From positions 81,049-145,048 of the forward strand of contig JAUSAZ010000012.1 of the NCBI GenBank assembly GCA_030652255.1: a stretch of DNA of 64,000 bases. Reading direction: 5' to 3'. The stretch comes from Myxococcales bacterium (GTDB taxonomy: Bacteria > Myxococcota_A > Polyangia > Polyangiales > Ga0077539). Made by a program: the position numbers and the translations under genes. The notes beneath the pieces are model-generated. The model had not been told where the DNA came from. It did not search any database and saw only the letters and a program-made list of their open reading frames with translations. Every line of letters begins with the position of its first letter. The first letter of the stretch is position 1. This document shows positions 4,954 through 17,886 of the stretch, piece by piece.

Positions 4954-4980
4954 GGCCGCGGAGTGTACCGCGGCGGGGGC

Positions 4981-7782
4981 CTACAGGAAGTCGACCGCCA
5001 TCGTCTGCGACGGCGCGGCGCAGGTGGCCGAGTTGACCCCGCCCCAGTTGGAGCCCTGGCACGGGCGCACGATGTACCCGGTGGGGCAGTTGGACGGGCT
5101 GCAGGTCGCGGGCGGGTCGATCCACAGCTCGCCGTTGTAGCGGCTGCCGCAGAGCGACCAGACGCGGCCGTCGCAGCTCATGCTGAAGTTGGTCCCGGTG
5201 CGCAGCGCCGTCGCGAGCCCGTTGACCACCACGGGGTTGGTGCACGAGATGCCCGTGGGGTTGAAGGTCCCGCGGATGGTCACCCGCGAGTAGGTCGTCC
5301 CGAGGCCCGCGCGCCAGGTGTTCCAGTCCGTGCACGCCGAGGGGGGCGGGTCGACGTTGGTCACGAACGACCCGCTGTACGTGCGCGCGCCGCTCGCGCA
5401 CACGCCCGCCGTGCACACGCCGCTCGCGCAGCGGTTGCCGCAGGCGCCGCAGTTCGAGGCGCTCGTGCGCAGGTCGACCTCGCAGCCGTTGGCCGCGCTG
5501 CCGTCGCAGTTGCCGAAGCCCGCGTTGCAGGCCGCCACGGCGCACGTGCCCGCAGCGCAGGCCGCGGTGCCGTTGGCCACGACGCAGCGGTTGCCGCACG
5601 CGCCGCAGTGGCTGACGTTCGTGGCGCTGTTGACCTCGCAGCCGTCGCCACCCGTGCCGTTGCAGTCGCGGAAGGCGCCCGTGCACGCCGCGATGGAGCA
5701 CGCCCCGCCCACGCAGGCCGCGGTGGCGTTGACGAAGCTGCACGCCCGGCCGCACGAGCCGCAGTTGGCGACGTCCGAGGCGATGCCCGCCTCGCAGCCG
5801 TTGCCCGCGGCGGCGTCGCAGTCGCGGAAGCCCGCGTTGCAGGCGTAGTTGCACGCGCCCGACGCGCACACCGCCGCGGCGTTGGGCCGCGCGGCGCAGC
5901 GCAGGCCGCAGGCGCTGCAGTTGTTGGGGTCGGTCTGCGTGCTGGTGCACGCGCCGCTGCACTCGGTCTGCCCCGCCGCGCAGCTCGCCCGGCACGCCCC
6001 GCCGGAGCACACCTGCCCCGCCGCGCAGCGCACCCCGCAGCCGCCGCAGGCCGCCGGGTCGGTCTGGGTGTTGGTCTCGCAGCCGTTGGCCGCGTCGCCG
6101 TCGCAGTTGACGAAGCCCGCGGCGCAGGCGCCGATCGCGCAGCGCCCCGCGGTGCACGCCGCCGCGGCGTTGGCGAAGCGGCACTGGAGCCCGCACGCGC
6201 CGCAGTTGGTGAGCGAGTTGAGCGCCGTCTCGCAGCCGTTGCCCGCGTTGCCGTCGCAGTCGCCGAAGCCCGCGTTGCACGCGTAGCCGCAGCGCCCCGC
6301 GCAGAACACCGTCGCGTTGGCCGGCCGCGCGCAGCGGTTGCCGCAGCTGGTGCAGTTGTCCGGGTCGTTGGCCACGTTGCGGCACGCGCCCGCGCAGTCC
6401 GTGAGCCCCGCGCCGCAGTTGGGCTGGCACGCCCCCGCGACGCAGCCCTCGCCCGCCGCGCAGCGCACCCCGCACGCGCCGCAGTTGGCGCCGTCGGTGC
6501 GGGTGTTGGTCTCGCAGCCGTCCACGTCCATGGCGTTGCAGTTGTCGAAGCCCGCCGCGCAGGCCCCGCGCGCGCAGCCCGAGCTCGTGCAGCTCGCGCC
6601 CGCGTTGGGGTACCGGCACGCCACGCCGCAGCCGCCGCAGTTGGCGACGTCGTCGAGCGCGGCCTCGCAGCCGTTGCTCGCGTCCCCGTCGCAGTCGCCG
6701 AAGCCGCGGGCGCACTCCACCCCGCAGCGCCCCGCCGTGCAGAACGCCGCGCCGTTGGCCGGCGCCGGGCACACCGTCCCGCAGGCGCCGCAGCCCGCCG
6801 GGTCGGTCTGGAGGTTGCGGCACGCGCCCGAGCAGTTGCTCAATCCGCCGCCGCAGGTCGCGACGCACGCACCCATCGAGCACACCTCGCCCTCCGCGCA
6901 GGCGAGCCCGCAGAGGCCGCAGTTGGCCCGGTCGGTCTGCAGGTCGCGGCACACGCCCGAGCACTCCGTCGTGCCGGCGCCGCAGCTCACCTGGCAGGCC
7001 CCGCGCACGCACACCTCGCCGGCGGCGCACGCCGTCCCGCACGCGCCGCAGTGGGCGCGGTCGCCCTGGAGGTCGCGGCACACGCCCGCGCACTCGGTGG
7101 TCCCGGTCGCGCACGACGCCCCGCACAGGCCCATCGAGCAGAGCTGGCCCGCGTCGCACGCCCGGCCGCAGGCGCCGCAGTTGGCGCGGTCGTTCTGGAG
7201 GTCACGGCACGCGTCGCCGCACGCCGTCGTGCCGCCGCCGCAGGTGGTCACGCAGGCCCCCGCCGCGCAGATCTGCCCGGGTCCGCAGGCCACGCCGCAC
7301 GCGCCGCAGTTGTCCCGGTCGGTGCGGGTGTTGGCGCAGTAGCGCGCCGCGCCCGCCCCCGCGTCGCCGCCGCCGGCGCACTGCGCGAGCATCGGGCCGC
7401 ACTCCAGGGCGCACTGGCCCATGGCGCACACCAGCCCGGCGGAGCACGCCGCGCCGCAGGCGCCGCAGTGGGCGCGGTCGGTGTCCGTCGAGACGCAGCG
7501 GTCGCCGCAGAGCACCTGCCCCGCGGGGCACGAGGGGCGGCACTGCCCCGCCGCGCAGACCTGCGTGCGCGGGCACGCCGTGCCGCAAGCGCCGCAGTGG
7601 AGGGGGTCGTCGGCGAGGGTGACGCAGGCGCCGCCGCAGGCCACCTGGCCCGCAGCGCAGGTCACGTCCGCGGGGACGTCGAGCCCGCCGCCGTCGACCA
7701 CGGCGGGCGCCGGGTCGCTGGTACAGCCGAAGAGGGTGAGCGCGAACGCGAACCAGAGCAGGTGGCGATGGGAGGTCTGCAT
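4981..7782 (-). CDS. Cys-rich repeat lipoprotein (myxobacterial disulfide-repeat type)
   Basis: Lipoprotein signal 'FAFALTLFGC'. It is followed by more than 20 copies of C-x2-C-G-x-x-C-x(5-8)-C-x2-G-x-C modules (for example 'HCGACGTACPRTQVCAAGQC') and a non-repetitive C-terminal domain of about 170 aa. Confidence 0.85.
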   Translation of the reverse strand: MQTSHRHLLWFAFALTLFGCTSDPAPAVVDGGGLDVPADVTCAAGQVACGGACVTLADDPLHCGACGTACPRTQVCAAGQCRPSCPAGQVLCGDRCVSTDTDRAHCGACGAACSAGLVCAMGQCALECGPMLAQCAGGGDAGAGAARYCANTRTDRDNCGACGVACGPGQICAAGACVTTCGGGTTACGDACRDLQNDRANCGACGRACDAGQLCSMGLCGASCATGTTECAGVCRDLQGDRAHCGACGTACAAGEVCVRGACQVSCGAGTTECSGVCRDLQTDRANCGLCGLACAEGEVCSMGACVATCGGGLSNCSGACRNLQTDPAGCGACGTVCPAPANGAAFCTAGRCGVECARGFGDCDGDASNGCEAALDDVANCGGCGVACRYPNAGASCTSSGCARGACAAGFDNCNAMDVDGCETNTRTDGANCGACGVRCAAGEGCVAGACQPNCGAGLTDCAGACRNVANDPDNCTSCGNRCARPANATVFCAGRCGYACNAGFGDCDGNAGNGCETALNSLTNCGACGLQCRFANAAAACTAGRCAIGACAAGFVNCDGDAANGCETNTQTDPAACGGCGVRCAAGQVCSGGACRASCAAGQTECSGACTSTQTDPNNCSACGLRCAARPNAAAVCASGACNYACNAGFRDCDAAAGNGCEAGIASDVANCGSCGRACSFVNATAACVGGACSIAACTGAFRDCNGTGGDGCEVNSATNVSHCGACGNRCVVANGTAACAAGTCAVAACNAGFGNCDGSAANGCEVDLRTSASNCGACGNRCASGVCTAGVCASGARTYSGSFVTNVDPPPSACTDWNTWRAGLGTTYSRVTIRGTFNPTGISCTNPVVVNGLATALRTGTNFSMSCDGRVWSLCGSRYNGELWIDPPATCSPSNCPTGYIVRPCQGSNWGGVNSATCAAPSQTMAVDFL

Positions 7783-7845
7783 GTACCCCGCAGAGCTACC
7801 GGAACCCGCCGCGGGCGTCGAGCGCCACGCGCCCCGGGGATGTCC

Positions 7846-10071
7846 TCAGTGCCCGCCGTGGTTGAGCCGGCGCTGGATGCGCTGGATGAACGCGGGGGCC
7901 CACCAGTTCCAGTCGCCGAGGAGGCGCATGGTGGCGGGCACCACGAGGATGCGCACGATGGTCGCGTCGAGGGCGACCGCGAGCGCCATGCCCACGCCCA
8001 TGGCCTTCAAGAGGATGACGTCGGCCATGGCGAAGGCCGCGAACACCGCCACCATGATGGCCGCGGCGCTGGTGACGAGGCGCCCGGAGCGCTCGAGGCC
8101 CTCGGCCACGGCCCGGGTGTTGTCCCCGTGCCGGGCGTACTCCTCCTGCATCCGGGTGAGCATCAGCACCTCGTAGTCCATCGAGAGCCCGAAGGTGGCG
8201 CAGAACATCAGGATGGGCAGCGACGGGTCGATGGGGCCGGGCGTGAAGCGCAGCACGCCCGCGAGGTGGCCCTTCTGAAAGATCCAGATGAGCGCGCCGA
8301 AGGAGCCGGTGATGGACAGGAGGTTCATCAGCACGGCCTTGATGGGCAGGGCCACGCTCCCGAGCAGCGCGAGCAGCACCAGCATGGTCATCACGACCAC
8401 GAAGCCCAGCGCCGGGCCCACCCGAGCGCGCAGGTAGGCCGCGGTGTCGAGGTCCATGGCGCTCTGGCCCGTCACGAGCAGCTCGCCGTCGGCCACGCGC
8501 CGCTGCGAGCGCACCGCGCGCACGATGGAGCGCGCCGCCTCCGAGGCGGGCGCGGCCTCGGTGAGGGCCGAGAGCACCACGACGTTGGGCCCGACGGTGT
8601 CGCGCACGAAGAGCTGGTGCCCCTCGGTGTGCTGCCCGGGGTCCATCAGCACGTCGGCGAGGGCGTCGGGCTCCAGCGTCGGGTCGAGGTCGACGACGCT
8701 CTCCACCCGCTCGACCCCCGGGATCGCCGCCACCCGCGCGCTCAGCGCCCGCAGCGCGAGCACCCGATCGCGGCGCTGGAGGGGTCCGCCGGGGAAGCGC
8801 GCCACCATCACCACCCGGGTCGCCGCGCGCTCGGTGAAGTGCTCCACGAGGAGCCCGTGGCCCCGGCGGGTCTCGGTGCTCGCGGGCAGCACGCCCATGT
8901 CGGGGATGGCGACCTTCATGTCGAGGAAGGGCCGCCCGAGCACGAGCAGCAGGGTCAGCGTGGGGAGCAGCACCAGCAGCGGGCGGCGCATCACCCAGGT
9001 CGCGTGGCGGTGCCAGAACCCGCCGCTGTGGGTCTTCGCCCCGCCGCCGATGCGCCAGCGGTTGACGTTGGGCCCCAGCACCGAGAGCAGGGCGGGGAGG
9101 AAGGTGAGCGCGTAGAGGGCCGCGAAGGTGACCACCAGGGTGCCGCCGAGGCCGAGGGACACGAGGTACGAGCCGCGGAAGAAGAAGAGCCCGGAGAGCC
9201 CGATGACGACGGCGAGGCCCGAGAAGGCCACGGCGCGCCCGGCGGTGGCGACGGTGCGGGCGACGGCGTCCTCGACGGAGAGCCCCGCCGCGAGCTCCTC
9301 GCGGAAGCGGTTGACCATGAAGAGCGAGTAGTCGATGGCCACGCCGAGGCCGACCAGCGAGACGATGTTGATCGCGTACTGCGCGACCTCCATGCGCCAC
9401 GAGAGCAGCATCACCGCCGCGACGCCCGCGGCCACCGCGAGCGCGCCGATGCCCGCCGGGAGCAGCGCCGCGACCACCGAGCCGAACACCGCGAGCAGCA
9501 CCACGAGGGTGAGCGGCGCGGAGAGCAGTTCGGCGCGCTGGAGGTCGCGCTCGAGCACGGCGTCGAGGTCGGCGCGGAAGGCCCCGAGGCCGGTGACGGT
9601 GACCGTGAGCGGCCCCCCAACGATGCGCCGCCGGAGGGCGGGGTAGCCGCGGGTGTCGACGGTCGCGGCGTGGCGCAGGGCGACCGTGGCGATGGCGTGG
9701 TGCGTGTCGAGGGACTGCATCGTGGAGGCCTCGACGGCGGAGACGTCCTCGTCGAAGGGCGAGCGCACGCGGAGCACCGACGGGTCGCGGCGCAGGGGCG
9801 CGAGCGCGCGCAGGGCGGCCTCCTGGAAGCGCGGCTCGTCGGTGGTCCACTCGGCGTGGCTGAGGACGATGGTGAGGCCCGAGGCGCCCGCCTGCGGGAG
9901 CTCGCGGTCGATGAGCTCGGCGGCGGTGTCGGCCTCGATGCCGTGGATGCGCCCGGACGTGAGCCGGCCCCCGACGAGCAGCGACGCCAGCGAGGCCAGC
10001 AGGAAGGCCGCGCTCACCGCGAGCACGGCGCGGCGGTGCGCGAAGACCCATCGACCCCAGGCAGCGAACAT
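7846..10071 (-). CDS. MMPL/RND-superfamily transporter
   Basis: 741 aa. Two homologous halves, each a large loop followed by a cluster of about 5 TM helices (for example 'GLGVAIDYSLFMVNRFREE' and 'TFGLSMDYEVLMLTRMQEE'), as is typical of MMPL proteins. Confidence 0.85.
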   Translation of the reverse strand: MFAAWGRWVFAHRRAVLAVSAAFLLASLASLLVGGRLTSGRIHGIEADTAAELIDRELPQAGASGLTIVLSHAEWTTDEPRFQEAALRALAPLRRDPSVLRVRSPFDEDVSAVEASTMQSLDTHHAIATVALRHAATVDTRGYPALRRRIVGGPLTVTVTGLGAFRADLDAVLERDLQRAELLSAPLTLVVLLAVFGSVVAALLPAGIGALAVAAGVAAVMLLSWRMEVAQYAINIVSLVGLGVAIDYSLFMVNRFREELAAGLSVEDAVARTVATAGRAVAFSGLAVVIGLSGLFFFRGSYLVSLGLGGTLVVTFAALYALTFLPALLSVLGPNVNRWRIGGGAKTHSGGFWHRHATWVMRRPLLVLLPTLTLLLVLGRPFLDMKVAIPDMGVLPASTETRRGHGLLVEHFTERAATRVVMVARFPGGPLQRRDRVLALRALSARVAAIPGVERVESVVDLDPTLEPDALADVLMDPGQHTEGHQLFVRDTVGPNVVVLSALTEAAPASEAARSIVRAVRSQRRVADGELLVTGQSAMDLDTAAYLRARVGPALGFVVVMTMLVLLALLGSVALPIKAVLMNLLSITGSFGALIWIFQKGHLAGVLRFTPGPIDPSLPILMFCATFGLSMDYEVLMLTRMQEEYARHGDNTRAVAEGLERSGRLVTSAAAIMVAVFAAFAMADVILLKAMGVGMALAVALDATIVRILVVPATMRLLGDWNWWAPAFIQRIQRRLNHGGH

Positions 10072-10092
10072 CCGTGTCTCCCGTCTCCTCGG

Positions 10093-10878
10093 TCAGCGCG
10101 TGAGCGCGCGGGCCACCGACGCGGCCAGCAACCCCGCGGCGAGCGCCGTCGCCCGCCGATCACCGGGCGGAACATCGCGCGCCATGGGCTGGCTCGCCAG
10201 TACCATGAGGCCGATGGTGGGGAGGGCAGGCACTGCGCGCTCCAGGGCGATCGCGAGCACCCCGGCGCCGACGATGCCCAGCCAGAGGGCCGCCCCCATG
10301 CGGGCGCGGGGCATGCTGAAGCGCGCCGCGGCGGCGAGGTAGAGCGCCACGAACACCGCGTCGCCGAAGCCGATGGCGGGCCGCGGCTCGCGGTGCGGCG
10401 GGATCGCCACGCTCAGCGTGAGCACCCGCAGGAGGGCGGGCGACTGCACGATGCGGTGCGTTGGCCCCGCGGGGGACGTGACGCTCCAGAGGTCGACCGC
10501 GGCGGAGACGAGGGCCACGGCGGCGAGGTGGCCGGCGGACTCCATGCGCGACCCGATGGCCGCGCCCACGAGGGCCGCGACGGTGAGCAGCCCGAGCGCC
10601 CCGGCGAGCCCGGAGGCGACCGGCGGGAGGCGCAGGGCCAGGGCGACGAGGGCGACGCCGACGAGCGCGGCGGGCACCACGACGCGCGCCGGGAGGGCCG
10701 CGGAGGGGGCGAGCGCGACGCCACCGACGATGGCGAGGGCCACGACGCCGAGGGCCAGGAGGGTGGCGGCGAGCGGGCCCAGCGGCAGCCAAGGGGCGAC
10801 GGCGGCGAGCAGGCCCAGCGGGAGCAGCGCGGCGAGGGCGGGTCGGGCGACGATGCGGGCGAGCGGGGGGAGTGCCAT
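10093..10878 (-). CDS. Polytopic membrane protein with presenilin/signal-peptide-peptidase-like D...GxGD...PAL motifs
   Basis: 261 aa with about 9 hydrophobic segments. Intramembrane 'AAVDLWSVTSPAGP' (D129), 'IGFGDAVFV' (D173) and 'VPALPTIG' (217-219) occur in the order found in the A22 family. The gene lies 21 nt upstream of the MMPL gene on the same strand. Confidence 0.6.
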   Translation of the reverse strand: MALPPLARIVARPALAALLPLGLLAAVAPWLPLGPLAATLLALGVVALAIVGGVALAPSAALPARVVVPAALVGVALVALALRLPPVASGLAGALGLLTVAALVGAAIGSRMESAGHLAAVALVSAAVDLWSVTSPAGPTHRIVQSPALLRVLTLSVAIPPHREPRPAIGFGDAVFVALYLAAAARFSMPRARMGAALWLGIVGAGVLAIALERAVPALPTIGLMVLASQPMARDVPPGDRRATALAAGLLAASVARALTR

Positions 10879-10931
10879 CCGGTGCGCGGAGGATAGTCAA
10901 TCGGTGGGGTCTTGCGGCATGTTGCGCCGCG

Positions 10932-11672
10932 TTGCGCGGACGAGGACGACAGCGGATCGGTTGGGCGGTGCTGGCCGCGGCGCTCGCGGGGCACTGCCGC
11001 AGGGCGGAGGCGCCGCGGGCGAGCGCGCCGCCGCGGGGGCCGTCGCTGGCGGGGCTGTACTGGGGTCGCTGGCCGGAGGTGCCCGAGGGGATGCGCGTCG
11101 CCGTGTGGCTGCACGAGGACGGCGCGGTGCTGCGCGGGAGCTGGGACCTGCCGCCGTGGCACGGCGAGCTCGCCGCGGTGCGCGGGGAGAGCGGGTACGC
11201 GGGTCTCTGGCGCGAGGAGGGCACCATCGCCATCCAGCAGGGTCGAGAGCGCCCGGTGGTGCTCTCGCTGGACGCGCGCGACGGCACGCTCCGGGAGGCG
11301 GGCGTGGGCCACGAGGCGATCGAGCTGCGGCGCGCGGGGCGGCCGACCAGCGAGCTGCGCGCGGGGCTTTGGCTGGGTCGATGGACGGGGCTGCCGACGG
11401 GCGTCGCGGTGGAGACGCTGCTCACGCCGCTGAGCGAGCGGCGGTGGCGCGCGACCTACCACTACCAGGAGCGCGAGGGCACCTTCGATGGGGACGCGCT
11501 GCCCGGCGGTGGTCTGGCCATCCGATGGCGCGAGGTATCCCCGCGCGACGCGGTGGCGACGGGCCGGGGGAGGCTGCTGCCCGACACGCTGGGCCTCCGG
11601 GGCACCTACGGGGTCGACGAGCGCGAGTCGGGGACCGGGCTGTGGACGCTCGAAGCGTGGAGGGTGCCGTGA
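10932..11672 (+). CDS. Hypothetical secreted protein (start uncertain)
   Basis: This frame is W/Y/E-containing and protein-like, whereas the overlapping frames are R/G/A junk. The ORF-track start at 10872 would overlap the divergent gene, so I chose the TTG at 10932, which gives 'MRGRGRQRIGWAVLAAALAGHC' (signal-like). Its stop overlaps the next start (GTGA). Confidence 0.45.
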   Translation: MRGRGRQRIGWAVLAAALAGHCRRAEAPRASAPPRGPSLAGLYWGRWPEVPEGMRVAVWLHEDGAVLRGSWDLPPWHGELAAVRGESGYAGLWREEGTIAIQQGRERPVVLSLDARDGTLREAGVGHEAIELRRAGRPTSELRAGLWLGRWTGLPTGVAVETLLTPLSERRWRATYHYQEREGTFDGDALPGGGLAIRWREVSPRDAVATGRGRLLPDTLGLRGTYGVDERESGTGLWTLEAWRVP

Positions 11673-11971
11673 GCGACGAGGCCGCAGCGCTGCTGCGGGT
11701 GCTGGTCGAGGGAGACACGAGCGCGGTGGCCGAGGCGCTGCACGCCGACGTGGTGTTCGTGCAGGGCGACGGCACCGAGCACCGCGGGGCCGAGGCGGTG
11801 GTGGCGATGTTCACCCGGGCCGACGGCTCGGTGCGCTACGCGGTGGTGGCGGTCGAGGCCGCGGCGGTGCGGGTGGAGCTCACCGTGCCGGGCATGCCGG
11901 GGGCGGTGCGGTTTACCTTGTGTGGAATGAGCGAGGCGGGGCGGCTGGTGCGGGTGCGGGTCGAGGCGTGA
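11669..11971 (+). CDS. Small SnoaL/NTF2-like protein
   Basis: The GTG at 11669 overlaps the upstream stop (GTGA). The 100-aa 'VSDEAAALLRVLVEGDTSAVAEALHADVVFVQGDGTEHRGAEAVVAMF...' resembles SnoaL-like cone-fold proteins. It is the 3' tail of the otherwise implausible 532-aa ORF 10373..11971. Confidence 0.5.
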   Translation: MSDEAAALLRVLVEGDTSAVAEALHADVVFVQGDGTEHRGAEAVVAMFTRADGSVRYAVVAVEAAAVRVELTVPGMPGAVRFTLCGMSEAGRLVRVRVEA

Positions 11972-15915: not shown

Positions 15916-17886
15916 TCAGTCCCACCAGATGCGGGGCCGGGTGGCCATGGGGTGCCCGTCGACGGAGACCTCGACGACGCACGATCCCCGCGCCGCCGGG
16001 GCCGTCACCTCGACGCTCGTCTCTCCCTCCCCGACGACCGCCGGCCCGAGCGAGCCATCGCCCGCCAGCAGCCGGAACGTCACCTGCGCACCCACCGCGG
16101 GGCTGCCGTCGGGGCCGCGCGGGGTGACCCGTAGCCGAACCGTCGATGCGCCGTCGGCCGGGCGCCGCCGCGCGGGGGGCTCCACCACGATGCTCGGCGG
16201 CTCGACCACGAGGTGGGTGCGCCCGGCCGCGACGTCCCGCAGCACCTGCACGGTGCCCGACGGCCAGCGGATGGTGACCTCCTCCGCCGCGTTGGCCTCG
16301 CCGACGCCGACGAACAGCAGCGGGTTCGTGAAGACCTGCGGCGGGGCCATCGCGCCTACCAGGTGGTGCTGCACCCGCGCCGACGCCGTGGCGCGCACCT
16401 CCACCCGCGCCCCGACGCCGAGCGCGTTGCTGGTCGTGCCGCGCAGCCGCAGGCCGAAGCCGTTGCGCCCGGGGCGGAGGTCGTTGCGGTAGACCCGCGC
16501 CGGCGCGCCCCGTCCGCCCACCACCAGGTCGGGGTCGCCGTCCGCGTCGAGGTCGCCCACCGACAGCGAGCGCCAGTCGCCCCCGCGGTCGAGCCCGAGC
16601 GCCCCGTCGACCTCGCCCATGCAGAAGTCGCCGTCGCCGTGGAGGTGCACCGAGGTCCACTGCGGTCCGATCGGGGCCTCGGTCGGGAGCGTGTTGTGGT
16701 TGCCGTGGGTGACGACGGTGTCCTGGCGCCCGTCCCGGTCGAGGTCGAGGTACGCGACGGCCCAGGGCTTCTGGGCCACGCCGAGCGACCCGAGGAGCGT
16801 GCCCATCCCGCCTGCGTCGGGCACCAGGGCGAGCGGGATCTGGTCGCCGCCGCGCCACAGATGGAAGCGGGGGTCGCCCGTGATCGCGAGCTCGAAGCGC
16901 CCGTCCTGGTCGAGGTCCGCGATGGCAGCCCCCATCGGCCCGCCGATGGACCCCGCGACCACGGGCATCGGCTGGAAGGTGGGGTAGGCCTCGCCGTCGA
17001 CGGGCCCCTCCGCGAAGAACACCGGCGCGTCGAGCTCGCAGCCGCCGTGGTTGCCCACCGCGCCTACCACGCGCCGCCCGCCGAGCGGCCCCATGAAGAG
17101 CGTCCCCTCGCCCACCCGCACGCGCGCGGGCACCAGCGCGGGTCGCTCCTCGAAGCGGCGCGGCGCGGTCTGCAGGAAGGCCCGCACCGTCGGCTGCGCC
17201 CCGCACGGGCTCCGCAGCTCGGCGCCCACCAGCACGTCGATCCAGCCGTCGTGATCGATGTCGTCGAGCCACATCGCGCCCGCGCCGATGGCGCCGGTTT
17301 CCAGCAGCGGCACGAAGGCCCCGGCCCCGCCCCACAGCACCGGCGGAACGCCCGAGCCAGGCCCCTCCCCCGTCCCGACGACGTCGTCGCGGCCGTCGCC
17401 GTCGAGGTCGACGATGCCCCGCGCCGGCGCCGCGAGCCACGGACCCTCGTGCCGCGCGAGCGTGCCCGACGCGGCGTCGTAGCGGTACCCGACGGAGCCC
17501 GTCGGGTCGCCCTGCGTCGCATACAAGATGTCCGGCGCCCCGTCGGCGTCGACGTCGCCGATGGTCGCGTGCGAGAGCACGGCGGACCCGAAGGGTGGGG
17601 CCGGCGGCACCGTCGGCAGCGTCGCCTCGACGGCCGCCGTGAGGTCCGTGAATCCCCCCGCGATCACCCCCGCCGCGATGACCTCCGCGCACGCGTTGGG
17701 CGCAGCGCCGCTGTCGGCCCCGCGGGCCTCGGGCCGATCGTCGGCCACCGGGACCCCGGCGTCGGAGGCCGCGCTCCGCTCCACCTCGCAGCCCACCGTG
17801 AGGGCCCAGGCCACCGGGCCCAGGCACCAGACGCCAACGCGGCAGGCTCCGCGGCGAGATCGCATCGCCCGCGGATCATAACCCAC
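15916..17886 (-). CDS. CRTAC1-family protein (FG-GAP/VCBS repeats + ASPIC/UnbV domain), lipoprotein
   Basis: Lipobox 'WALTVGC'. Repeated 'DxDxDGxxD' Ca-binding FG-GAP loops (DVDADGAPD, DLDGDGRDD, DIDHDGWID, DLDRDGRQD, DLDADGDPD). C-terminal 'NGFGLRLRGTTSNALGVGARVEV...IRWPSGTVQVL' matches ASPIC/UnbV. Confidence 0.8.
   Translation of the reverse strand: MGYDPRAMRSRRGACRVGVWCLGPVAWALTVGCEVERSAASDAGVPVADDRPEARGADSGAAPNACAEVIAAGVIAGGFTDLTAAVEATLPTVPPAPPFGSAVLSHATIGDVDADGAPDILYATQGDPTGSVGYRYDAASGTLARHEGPWLAAPARGIVDLDGDGRDDVVGTGEGPGSGVPPVLWGGAGAFVPLLETGAIGAGAMWLDDIDHDGWIDVLVGAELRSPCGAQPTVRAFLQTAPRRFEERPALVPARVRVGEGTLFMGPLGGRRVVGAVGNHGGCELDAPVFFAEGPVDGEAYPTFQPMPVVAGSIGGPMGAAIADLDQDGRFELAITGDPRFHLWRGGDQIPLALVPDAGGMGTLLGSLGVAQKPWAVAYLDLDRDGRQDTVVTHGNHNTLPTEAPIGPQWTSVHLHGDGDFCMGEVDGALGLDRGGDWRSLSVGDLDADGDPDLVVGGRGAPARVYRNDLRPGRNGFGLRLRGTTSNALGVGARVEVRATASARVQHHLVGAMAPPQVFTNPLLFVGVGEANAAEEVTIRWPSGTVQVLRDVAAGRTHLVVEPPSIVVEPPARRRPADGASTVRLRVTPRGPDGSPAVGAQVTFRLLAGDGSLGPAVVGEGETSVEVTAPAARGSCVVEVSVDGHPMATRPRIWWD

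Follow-up and report, generated by a model that had tools for sequence, protein, structure and literature searches.

Intramembrane aspartyl proteases of the presenilin/SPP type (SPP, signal peptide peptidase) have been described from eukaryotes and archaea, with presenilin, the catalytic subunit of gamma-secretase, being the Alzheimer-related protease type. The archaeal enzyme PSH (MCMJR1; PF06550) is a cofactor-independent GxGD intramembrane protease whose activity by itself has been demonstrated (PMC2947513). Discussions of bacterial GxGD proteases usually concern the prepilin peptidases, which look unrelated, and the 2010 paper establishing the archaeal enzyme contrasts presenilin and SPP only with them (PMC2947513). 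Here we analyze a gene from a 64,000-nucleotide stretch of DNA, referred to below as the window, of a Myxococcales bacterium (GenBank assembly GCA_030652255.1, contig JAUSAZ010000012.1, positions 81,049 to 145,048). The gene occupies positions 10093..10878 of the minus strand of the window and its product is probably an intramembrane aspartyl protease of the presenilin/SPP type (GxGD, A22-like) that works alone and without cofactors and that belongs to a large, unannotated family of the Myxococcota. A preliminary description of the window had already read the product as a presenilin-like protease, and this reading is supported here by family profiles, motif invariance and fold matches, with catalysis itself being deduced from them.

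The gene starts with ATG and encodes a protein of 261 amino acids (aa). An open reading frame (ORF) of exactly this position and length had been reported in the preliminary description, to which the strand is now added. Codon-position GC content in this frame is 83/59/95% at positions 1/2/3 (GC3, 95%), which is the pattern expected in a genome of ~75% GC, and the frame was therefore taken to be the true coding frame. Orthologues of the full 261-aa length exist elsewhere. The GC content of the window is ~72-79%, and shadow ORFs of great length, the longest with 1977 aa, are found opposite real genes, as on the plus strand at 4963-10896. Because these ORFs are an artefact of ~75% GC, they should not be read as genes.

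Three motifs that had been noticed in the protein were found again in the same order: a first-Asp motif, AAVDLWSVTSPAGP, at residues 126-139, GFGD at residues 170-173, and PALP at residues 217-220. All of the elements that follow are on the minus strand. The putative first catalytic residue, D129 (codon at 10492..10494), is situated in helix 117-134 and is aligned with D257 of presenilin-1 (PS1). The P136-x-G138-P139...P147 segment behind it (10438..10473), with short helices at 139-153, is the counterpart of the transmembrane 6a (TM6a) segment of presenilin. Directly before GxGD, a beta hairpin is predicted by DSSP in both of the AlphaFold models described below (residues 154-158 and 165-170; 10369..10419), and by analogy it may correspond to the substrate-pairing strands of presenilin. 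The GxGD motif, G170-F-G172-D173 (10360..10371), opens helix 171-186, supplies the putative second catalytic Asp and is aligned with PS1 GLGD385, while P217-A-L-P220 (10219..10230) caps helix 218-234 and is aligned with PS1 P433-A-L-P. The PS1 motif strings used for the original comparison proved to be correct when checked against the PS1 sequence 5a63_B and the alignments. A loose D...GxGD...PAL trio arises in ~0.5% of shuffles of the 261-aa protein, which is rich in Ala, Leu, Gly and Pro and of low complexity, so the motifs of one sequence are weak evidence alone. The evidence that we regard as decisive is the invariance of the motifs in an alignment of 197 relatives, down to ~26% identity.

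The family turned out to be large. A word-indexed search identified 33 clusters at 90% identity, all without Pfam domains, and when 1.84 billion representatives were searched exhaustively with hmmsearch, 1020 clusters (50% identity) were obtained at E<=1e-3. Of these, 488 reach E<=1e-10 and 153 reach E<=1e-30, and almost all have a length of ~260-280 aa. The members are named 'hypothetical protein' in the databases, save for one 'MFS family permease'. All of the organism-named records are Myxococcota metagenome-assembled genomes, labelled as Myxococcaceae, Polyangiales, Sandaracinaceae or 'Deltaproteobacteria bacterium', and this presenilin-like family has thus far been seen only in the Myxococcota. 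The genome scan made with the 25-member alignment relied on a single narrow peptide pattern, so it does not show that other phyla or cultured species lack the family.

For the conservation counts, 197 family proteins with identities to the window protein of down to 26% were aligned to the hidden Markov model (HMM) of the family. D129 is Asp in 197/197 relatives, and D173 and G170 are each kept in 198/198. The remaining GxGD glycine, G172, is kept in 188/198. In the PAL motif, P217 is retained in 193 of 194 relatives, L219 in 188 of 194 and the Ala following P217 in 171 of 194, and in the segment behind the first Asp G138 is kept in 187/198 and P136 in 154/198. Two further residues, S132 (197/197) and G105 (196/196), are kept throughout. 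Family-specific positions that are invariant or nearly invariant and lie outside of the presenilin motifs are G105/G109 (a GxxxG in helix 4), H117 at the start of helix 5, S132 three residues past the first Asp, and R193 after helix 6.

Profile searches had been suggested in the preliminary description as a check on its reading, and those made with family profiles led exclusively to A22 among PDB chains, while no A24 family was matched in Pfam. Searching all PDB chains with the 25-member profile returned nine sequences at E<=10, all of them A22 (presenilin-1, the best at 7.4e-5, presenilin-2 and SPPL2a). With the 60-member profile, the C-terminal fragment of presenilin-1 (PS1-CTF) scored 3.5e-5, presenilin-2 (PS2) 3.7e-5 and SPPL2a 5e-4, and with neither profile was a non-A22 PDB chain found up to E=10. 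The 25-member profile aligns with PS1 in two collinear segments that hold all three motifs in register. The profile segment 'alvsaavDlwSvtspsGpthaives' is paired with the first-Asp segment of PS1 (D129 = D257), and 'GvGDvvFvAL...PALP' is paired with PS1 'GLGDFIFYSV...PALP'. The match extends beyond the motifs as an ungapped D-L-x-x-V-x-x-P-x-G-P-x-x-x-x-V, and the GxGD-to-PALP spacing is 44 residues in the window protein versus 48 in PS1. The significant part of the profile match runs from GxGD to PAL, with the first-Asp segment contributing only ~5 bits. For the N-terminal helices, local hmmsearch against PS1 gave only non-significant and mutually inconsistent pieces.

Other comparisons gave a similar picture. 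When 60 members were searched singly against Pfam, Presenilin (PF01080) was the commonest weak match (23/60, best 1.6e-4), followed by Peptidase_A22B (PF04258) in 4/60 (best 4.5e-4), and all other Pfam families were singletons. The corresponding NCBIfam scan of the 60 members produced scattered noise and no consistent match. Alignment to a PS1 profile with hhalign gave an E of 4.5e-5 and a probability of 69% over GxGD to PALP, using a PS1 profile that is shallow, as the search with human PS1 listed vertebrate presenilins only. When the 60-member alignment was used for a profile search by word index, no bridging proteins with Pfam annotation were recovered. PS1 itself has no phmmer match to SPPL2a or PSH in the PDB, and the A22 subfamilies are therefore just as far apart from one another. 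Taken together, homology of the family to A22 is very likely.

Structure prediction had likewise been proposed as a check, and it placed the two Asp residues in adjacent helices and presenilin-1 and SPPL2a at the top of the fold matches for two models, so that neither kind of check refuted the reading. The window protein was modelled with AlphaFold2 using the family alignment (pLDDT, the predicted local distance difference test, 92.1; pTM, the predicted template modelling score, 0.89). In the model, nine long helices are joined by a pair of short ones and a beta hairpin. Four helices (residues 6-30, 35-55, 64-81 and 86-110) precede the one that contains D129 (117-134). They are followed by the short helices (139-145 and 147-153), the two strands (154-158 and 165-170) and the helix with GFGD at its start (171-186), and then by helix 191-212, a helix preceded by PALP (218-229 and 231-234, taken as one, 218-234) and the last helix (238-260). 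A 30%-identical member, P0033, was modelled independently (pLDDT 90.1) and showed the same order of elements. In a Foldseek search of the PDB with the window model, ranks 1-13 were all presenilin-1 or SPPL2a, with a probability of 0.95-1.00 for the first twelve ranks and of 0.87 for rank 13. Two of these alignments cover 144 columns at 3.1-3.3 Å with 22% identity. For P0033, presenilin-1 and SPPL2a made up nine of the top eleven matches (probability 0.90-0.98), and their probabilities overall spanned 0.84-0.98. The fold evidence from these models is consistent and specific, yet it covers the protein in part: superposition is seen for the catalytic half, whereas the whole protein stays below the usual TM-score of 0.5.

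A number of observations weigh against assigning the family to the presenilin/SPP type. By itself, the window protein has no match in Pfam, NCBIfam or the PDB sequences, even at E<=10, and it lies below threshold for every A22 model, with the Pfam matches of its relatives all being weak. The profile, Pfam and Foldseek searches did not lead to PSH or PF06550, whether by sequence or by structure, and PF06550 was matched by none of the 60 members. The Tyr of the classical 'YD' is not kept, the residue before D129 being Ala in 120/197 relatives and Val in 56/197. The Foldseek E values are only ~1e-2, and the global TM-scores of 0.30-0.44 are below the usual same-fold value of 0.5. The topology is also shifted. 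About nine TM segments had been noted for the protein, and the models do have nine long helices, but these carry the Asp residues on the fifth and sixth and have PAL before the eighth, in place of TM6/TM7 and TM9 in classical A22. Both models thus have 5+4 rather than 6+3 helices around the catalytic pair, with an extra helix at the C-terminus. A separate difference, from presenilin only, is the predicted membrane orientation, which is that of SPP and opposite to that of presenilin. When Lys and Arg were counted with loops summed per side, the mean per sequence was 9.6 on the N-terminal side versus 4.8 on the other, and the loop that joins the two catalytic helices has a net negative charge. 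The positive-inside rule, the single line of evidence used here, would on this K+R bias make the N-terminus cytoplasmic and the inter-catalytic loop periplasmic.

If the family is of the presenilin/SPP type as proposed, its mode of action can be pictured from the model. D129 in helix 5 and D173 at the start of helix 6 would form a dyad facing each other inside the membrane and activate a water molecule, and the PALP turn (217-220) together with helix 8 would complete the active-site pocket. A substrate TM helix would enter sideways from the lipid, and its unwound end might be clamped by the short helix of the P-x-G-P segment (139-153) and the hairpin (154-170), in the way that presenilin handles APP and Notch. 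That the window protein is catalytically competent in this way seems a reasonable expectation. Because the predicted orientation is SPP-like, helices with the N-terminus inside and the C-terminus outside would be the likely substrates, such as signal-peptide remnants, signal-anchored proteins and anti-sigma factors; both this substrate class and the orientation itself are tentative assignments.

Could a presenilin-like fold serve a purpose other than proteolysis here? A gene for an MMPL transporter lies 21 nt downstream in an apparent operon, an arrangement that is present in nine loci of the closest clade, and the protein might accordingly be an accessory or assembly subunit of that transporter, or else a cation leak channel. 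A leak-channel role was previously proposed for presenilin and PSH, and PMC7997004 refers to GxGD proteases as having both protease and channel roles, citing Kuo et al. 2015 (ref. 57). We nevertheless consider a non-proteolytic role improbable: no MMPL gene is found beside the 74%-identical L013 orthologue or beside any member of <=55% identity, and the absolute conservation of both Asp residues, GxGD and PAL is what is expected of a catalytic site and would be unneeded by a scaffold. Still less probable, and rejected here, is an unrelated nine-helix family that resembles A22 in D, GxGD and PAL through convergence or chance. The frequency of the trio among shuffles, the global TM-scores to PS1 and the N-terminal helices without significant PS1 alignment would all be compatible with such a coincidence. 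It would not account for PDB profile matches that are exclusively A22 up to E=10, for a match that continues beyond the motifs (the ungapped D-L-x-x-V... and the 44 versus 48 spacing), or for two independent models yielding the same proteins in structure searches.

Since the A24 enzymes are the well-known bacterial GxGD aspartyl proteases, a divergent type IV prepilin peptidase or FlaK-type protease was also considered, and it was rejected as scarcely credible. Peptidase_A24 (PF01478) was matched by 0/25 members at E<=10 and by 0/60 at E<=1, no A24 structure occurs among the best 50 Foldseek matches listed for either model, and A24 enzymes differ from the window protein, with its Asp residues in adjacent helices, in having no PAL motif and in the placement of their Asp residues. 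A presenilin/SPP-type protease therefore remains the preferred reading of the gene.

The MMPL gene itself (7846..10071, minus strand) encodes a 741-aa RND transporter of the MMPL family (PF03176, E 1.4e-73, 248 bits against a cut-off of 20.5, in two stretches). Its matches to the NCBIfam equivalogs (MmpL3, HpnN and others) are all far below the cut-offs, so no substrate can be assigned to it. The 21-nt spacer that separates it from the presenilin-like gene (10072..10092, minus strand) contains a Shine-Dalgarno-like GAGGAG/GGGAGA and no terminator-like site, and co-transcription of the two genes in the window is plausible as a local feature. The link to an MMPL gene had been part of the preliminary description; the position 21 nt downstream on the same strand stands, but the linkage is restricted to the closest clade and is not a property of the family, for which it was rejected as a trait. 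The nine loci with a downstream MMPL gene, including the window, are all orthologues of at least 59% identity, and the gene is absent beside every examined family member of <=55% identity, where MaoC dehydratase/thiolase genes lie downstream, a Crp-like regulator lies upstream, or the neighbours are unrelated. At L013, a beta-barrel-like ORF and a patatin-like gene (6001-7900) take its place beside the 74%-identical orthologue, which indicates that the operon partner was lost or swapped recently. The clade-limited linkage consequently offers no family-wide clue to function. No neighbour hinting at a partner or substrate is conserved across the family, as MMPL, MaoC/thiolase and the Crp-like regulator are each clade-specific; this lack would be expected of an enzyme that works alone, and it offers no hint of a substrate.

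The neighbourhoods of individual clades have their own features. In a Sandaracinaceae/Polyangia clade (L024, L027, L032, L033 and L034), the presenilin-like gene is preceded at ~0.4-1 kb by a Crp/FNR-like cyclic-nucleotide-binding regulator, and genes for a MaoC dehydratase, a thiolase and an HMGL-like protein are found downstream in another clade (L003, L017-L019 and L021). In the window, the MMPL gene is followed after 63 nt by a gene (4981..7782, minus strand) for a 933-aa, Cys-rich protein of lipoprotein type (…LTLFGC) with many tandem 'CGACG…C' repeats and a Pfam Stig1 match in 6 stretches (E 1.4e-39). This Stig1-like repeat gene is kept after the MMPL gene in L010, L011, L012 and L014. 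On the other side of the presenilin-like gene, a divergent gene at 10932-11672 (plus strand; start uncertain between 10872 and 10968) encodes a protein of ~246-266 aa with no Pfam match, whose relatives bear a lipobox, for example 'LCVGGC'. It is followed by a gene for a 100-aa SnoaL_2-like protein (11669-11971, plus strand), the start of which overlaps the preceding stop by 4 nt. This divergent pair adjoins the presenilin-like gene down to ~50% identity (L003, L017 and L018) and is gone beyond that. The wider region is ordinary chromosome, with UvrC, ATP synthase a and c, an M15 peptidase and an FG-GAP protein. The last of these (15916-17886, minus strand) is a 656-aa FG-GAP/ASPIC-UnbV repeat protein with a C-terminal Ig-like domain (invasin/Big_1-type), and its gene sits between the ATP synthase genes, together with a small upstream ORF, and uvrC.

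The family has no curated model in Pfam or NCBIfam. Presenilin homologues from bacteria, or from myxobacteria in particular, were not described in any paper retrieved by full-text literature searches, although MEROPS or InterPro may list some bacterial A22-like sequences. What emerges from the analysis appears to be a bacterial, compact and re-wired presenilin-type family. A more speculative proposal, which we hold to be rather unlikely at present, is that it represents an ancient, phylum-wide Myxococcota family of true presenilin-type proteases that is closer in sequence to eukaryotic presenilin than PSH is; the basis for this closeness is that P-x-G-P and PALP are shared and that the profile matches presenilin and not PSH. 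If true, the catalytic core of presenilin may have a relative or donor in bacteria resembling myxobacteria, and the family would provide a small, cofactor-free bacterial model for catalysis of the gamma-secretase type. Apart from this proposal, a large bacterial family with the complete presenilin signature would bear on the origin of the presenilin core, would provide an enzyme of 261 aa, probably stand-alone, for mechanistic and structural studies of gamma-secretase-like catalysis, and would add a fourth type of intramembrane protease to bacterial membrane proteostasis and signalling, beside S2P, rhomboid and LspA. In addition, ~1000 clusters of 'hypothetical protein' would gain a testable annotation.

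Among the known systems, presenilin-1/2 (MEROPS A22A, PF01080) is the best match to the window protein in both sequence and fold. Common to the two are a helix Asp followed by L-x-x-V-x-x-P-x-G-P, a GxGD-x-(I/V)-F opening the next helix with PALP ~45 residues on, and a short helix plus beta strands between the catalytic helices. They differ in size (261 aa versus 467 aa for presenilin), and the window protein is without the long cytosolic loop, the N-terminal tail and the endoproteolysis loop of presenilin. Its first-Asp helix is the fifth instead of the sixth, it has one additional helix at the C-terminus, Ala or Val stands before the first Asp where presenilin has Tyr, and the predicted orientation in the membrane is opposite. 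Of the partner subunits of presenilin (nicastrin, APH-1 and PEN-2) there is no sign for the family, and it has no conserved neighbours.

The second-best match is SPP/SPPL2a (MEROPS A22B, PF04258), with a profile E of 5e-4 and Foldseek probabilities of 0.95-0.97. Like SPP, the family is proposed to act as a stand-alone enzyme and has a short loop between the catalytic helices, which is predicted to lie on the outer face. The Asp-to-Asp spacing is 44 residues in the window protein and ~46 in human SPP. Unlike in SPP, the P-x-G-P after the first Asp is of the presenilin kind, the N-terminus is predicted to be inside rather than outside, and the first catalytic helix has one fewer helix ahead of it, while an additional helix comes beyond the one that PAL precedes. 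The A24 prepilin peptidases and FlaK are also polytopic membrane proteins with GxGD and two Asp residues, but they lack the PAL motif that the window protein has as PALP, and their Asp residues are in cytoplasmic loops several helices apart, with cleavage taking place outside of the membrane (PMC2947513). PSH, prokaryotic and of similar size, provides the functional model for the proposed activity of the window protein. By these profile and fold measures, however, the family is nearer to eukaryotic presenilin, with which it shares D-x6-P-x-G-P, than to PSH.

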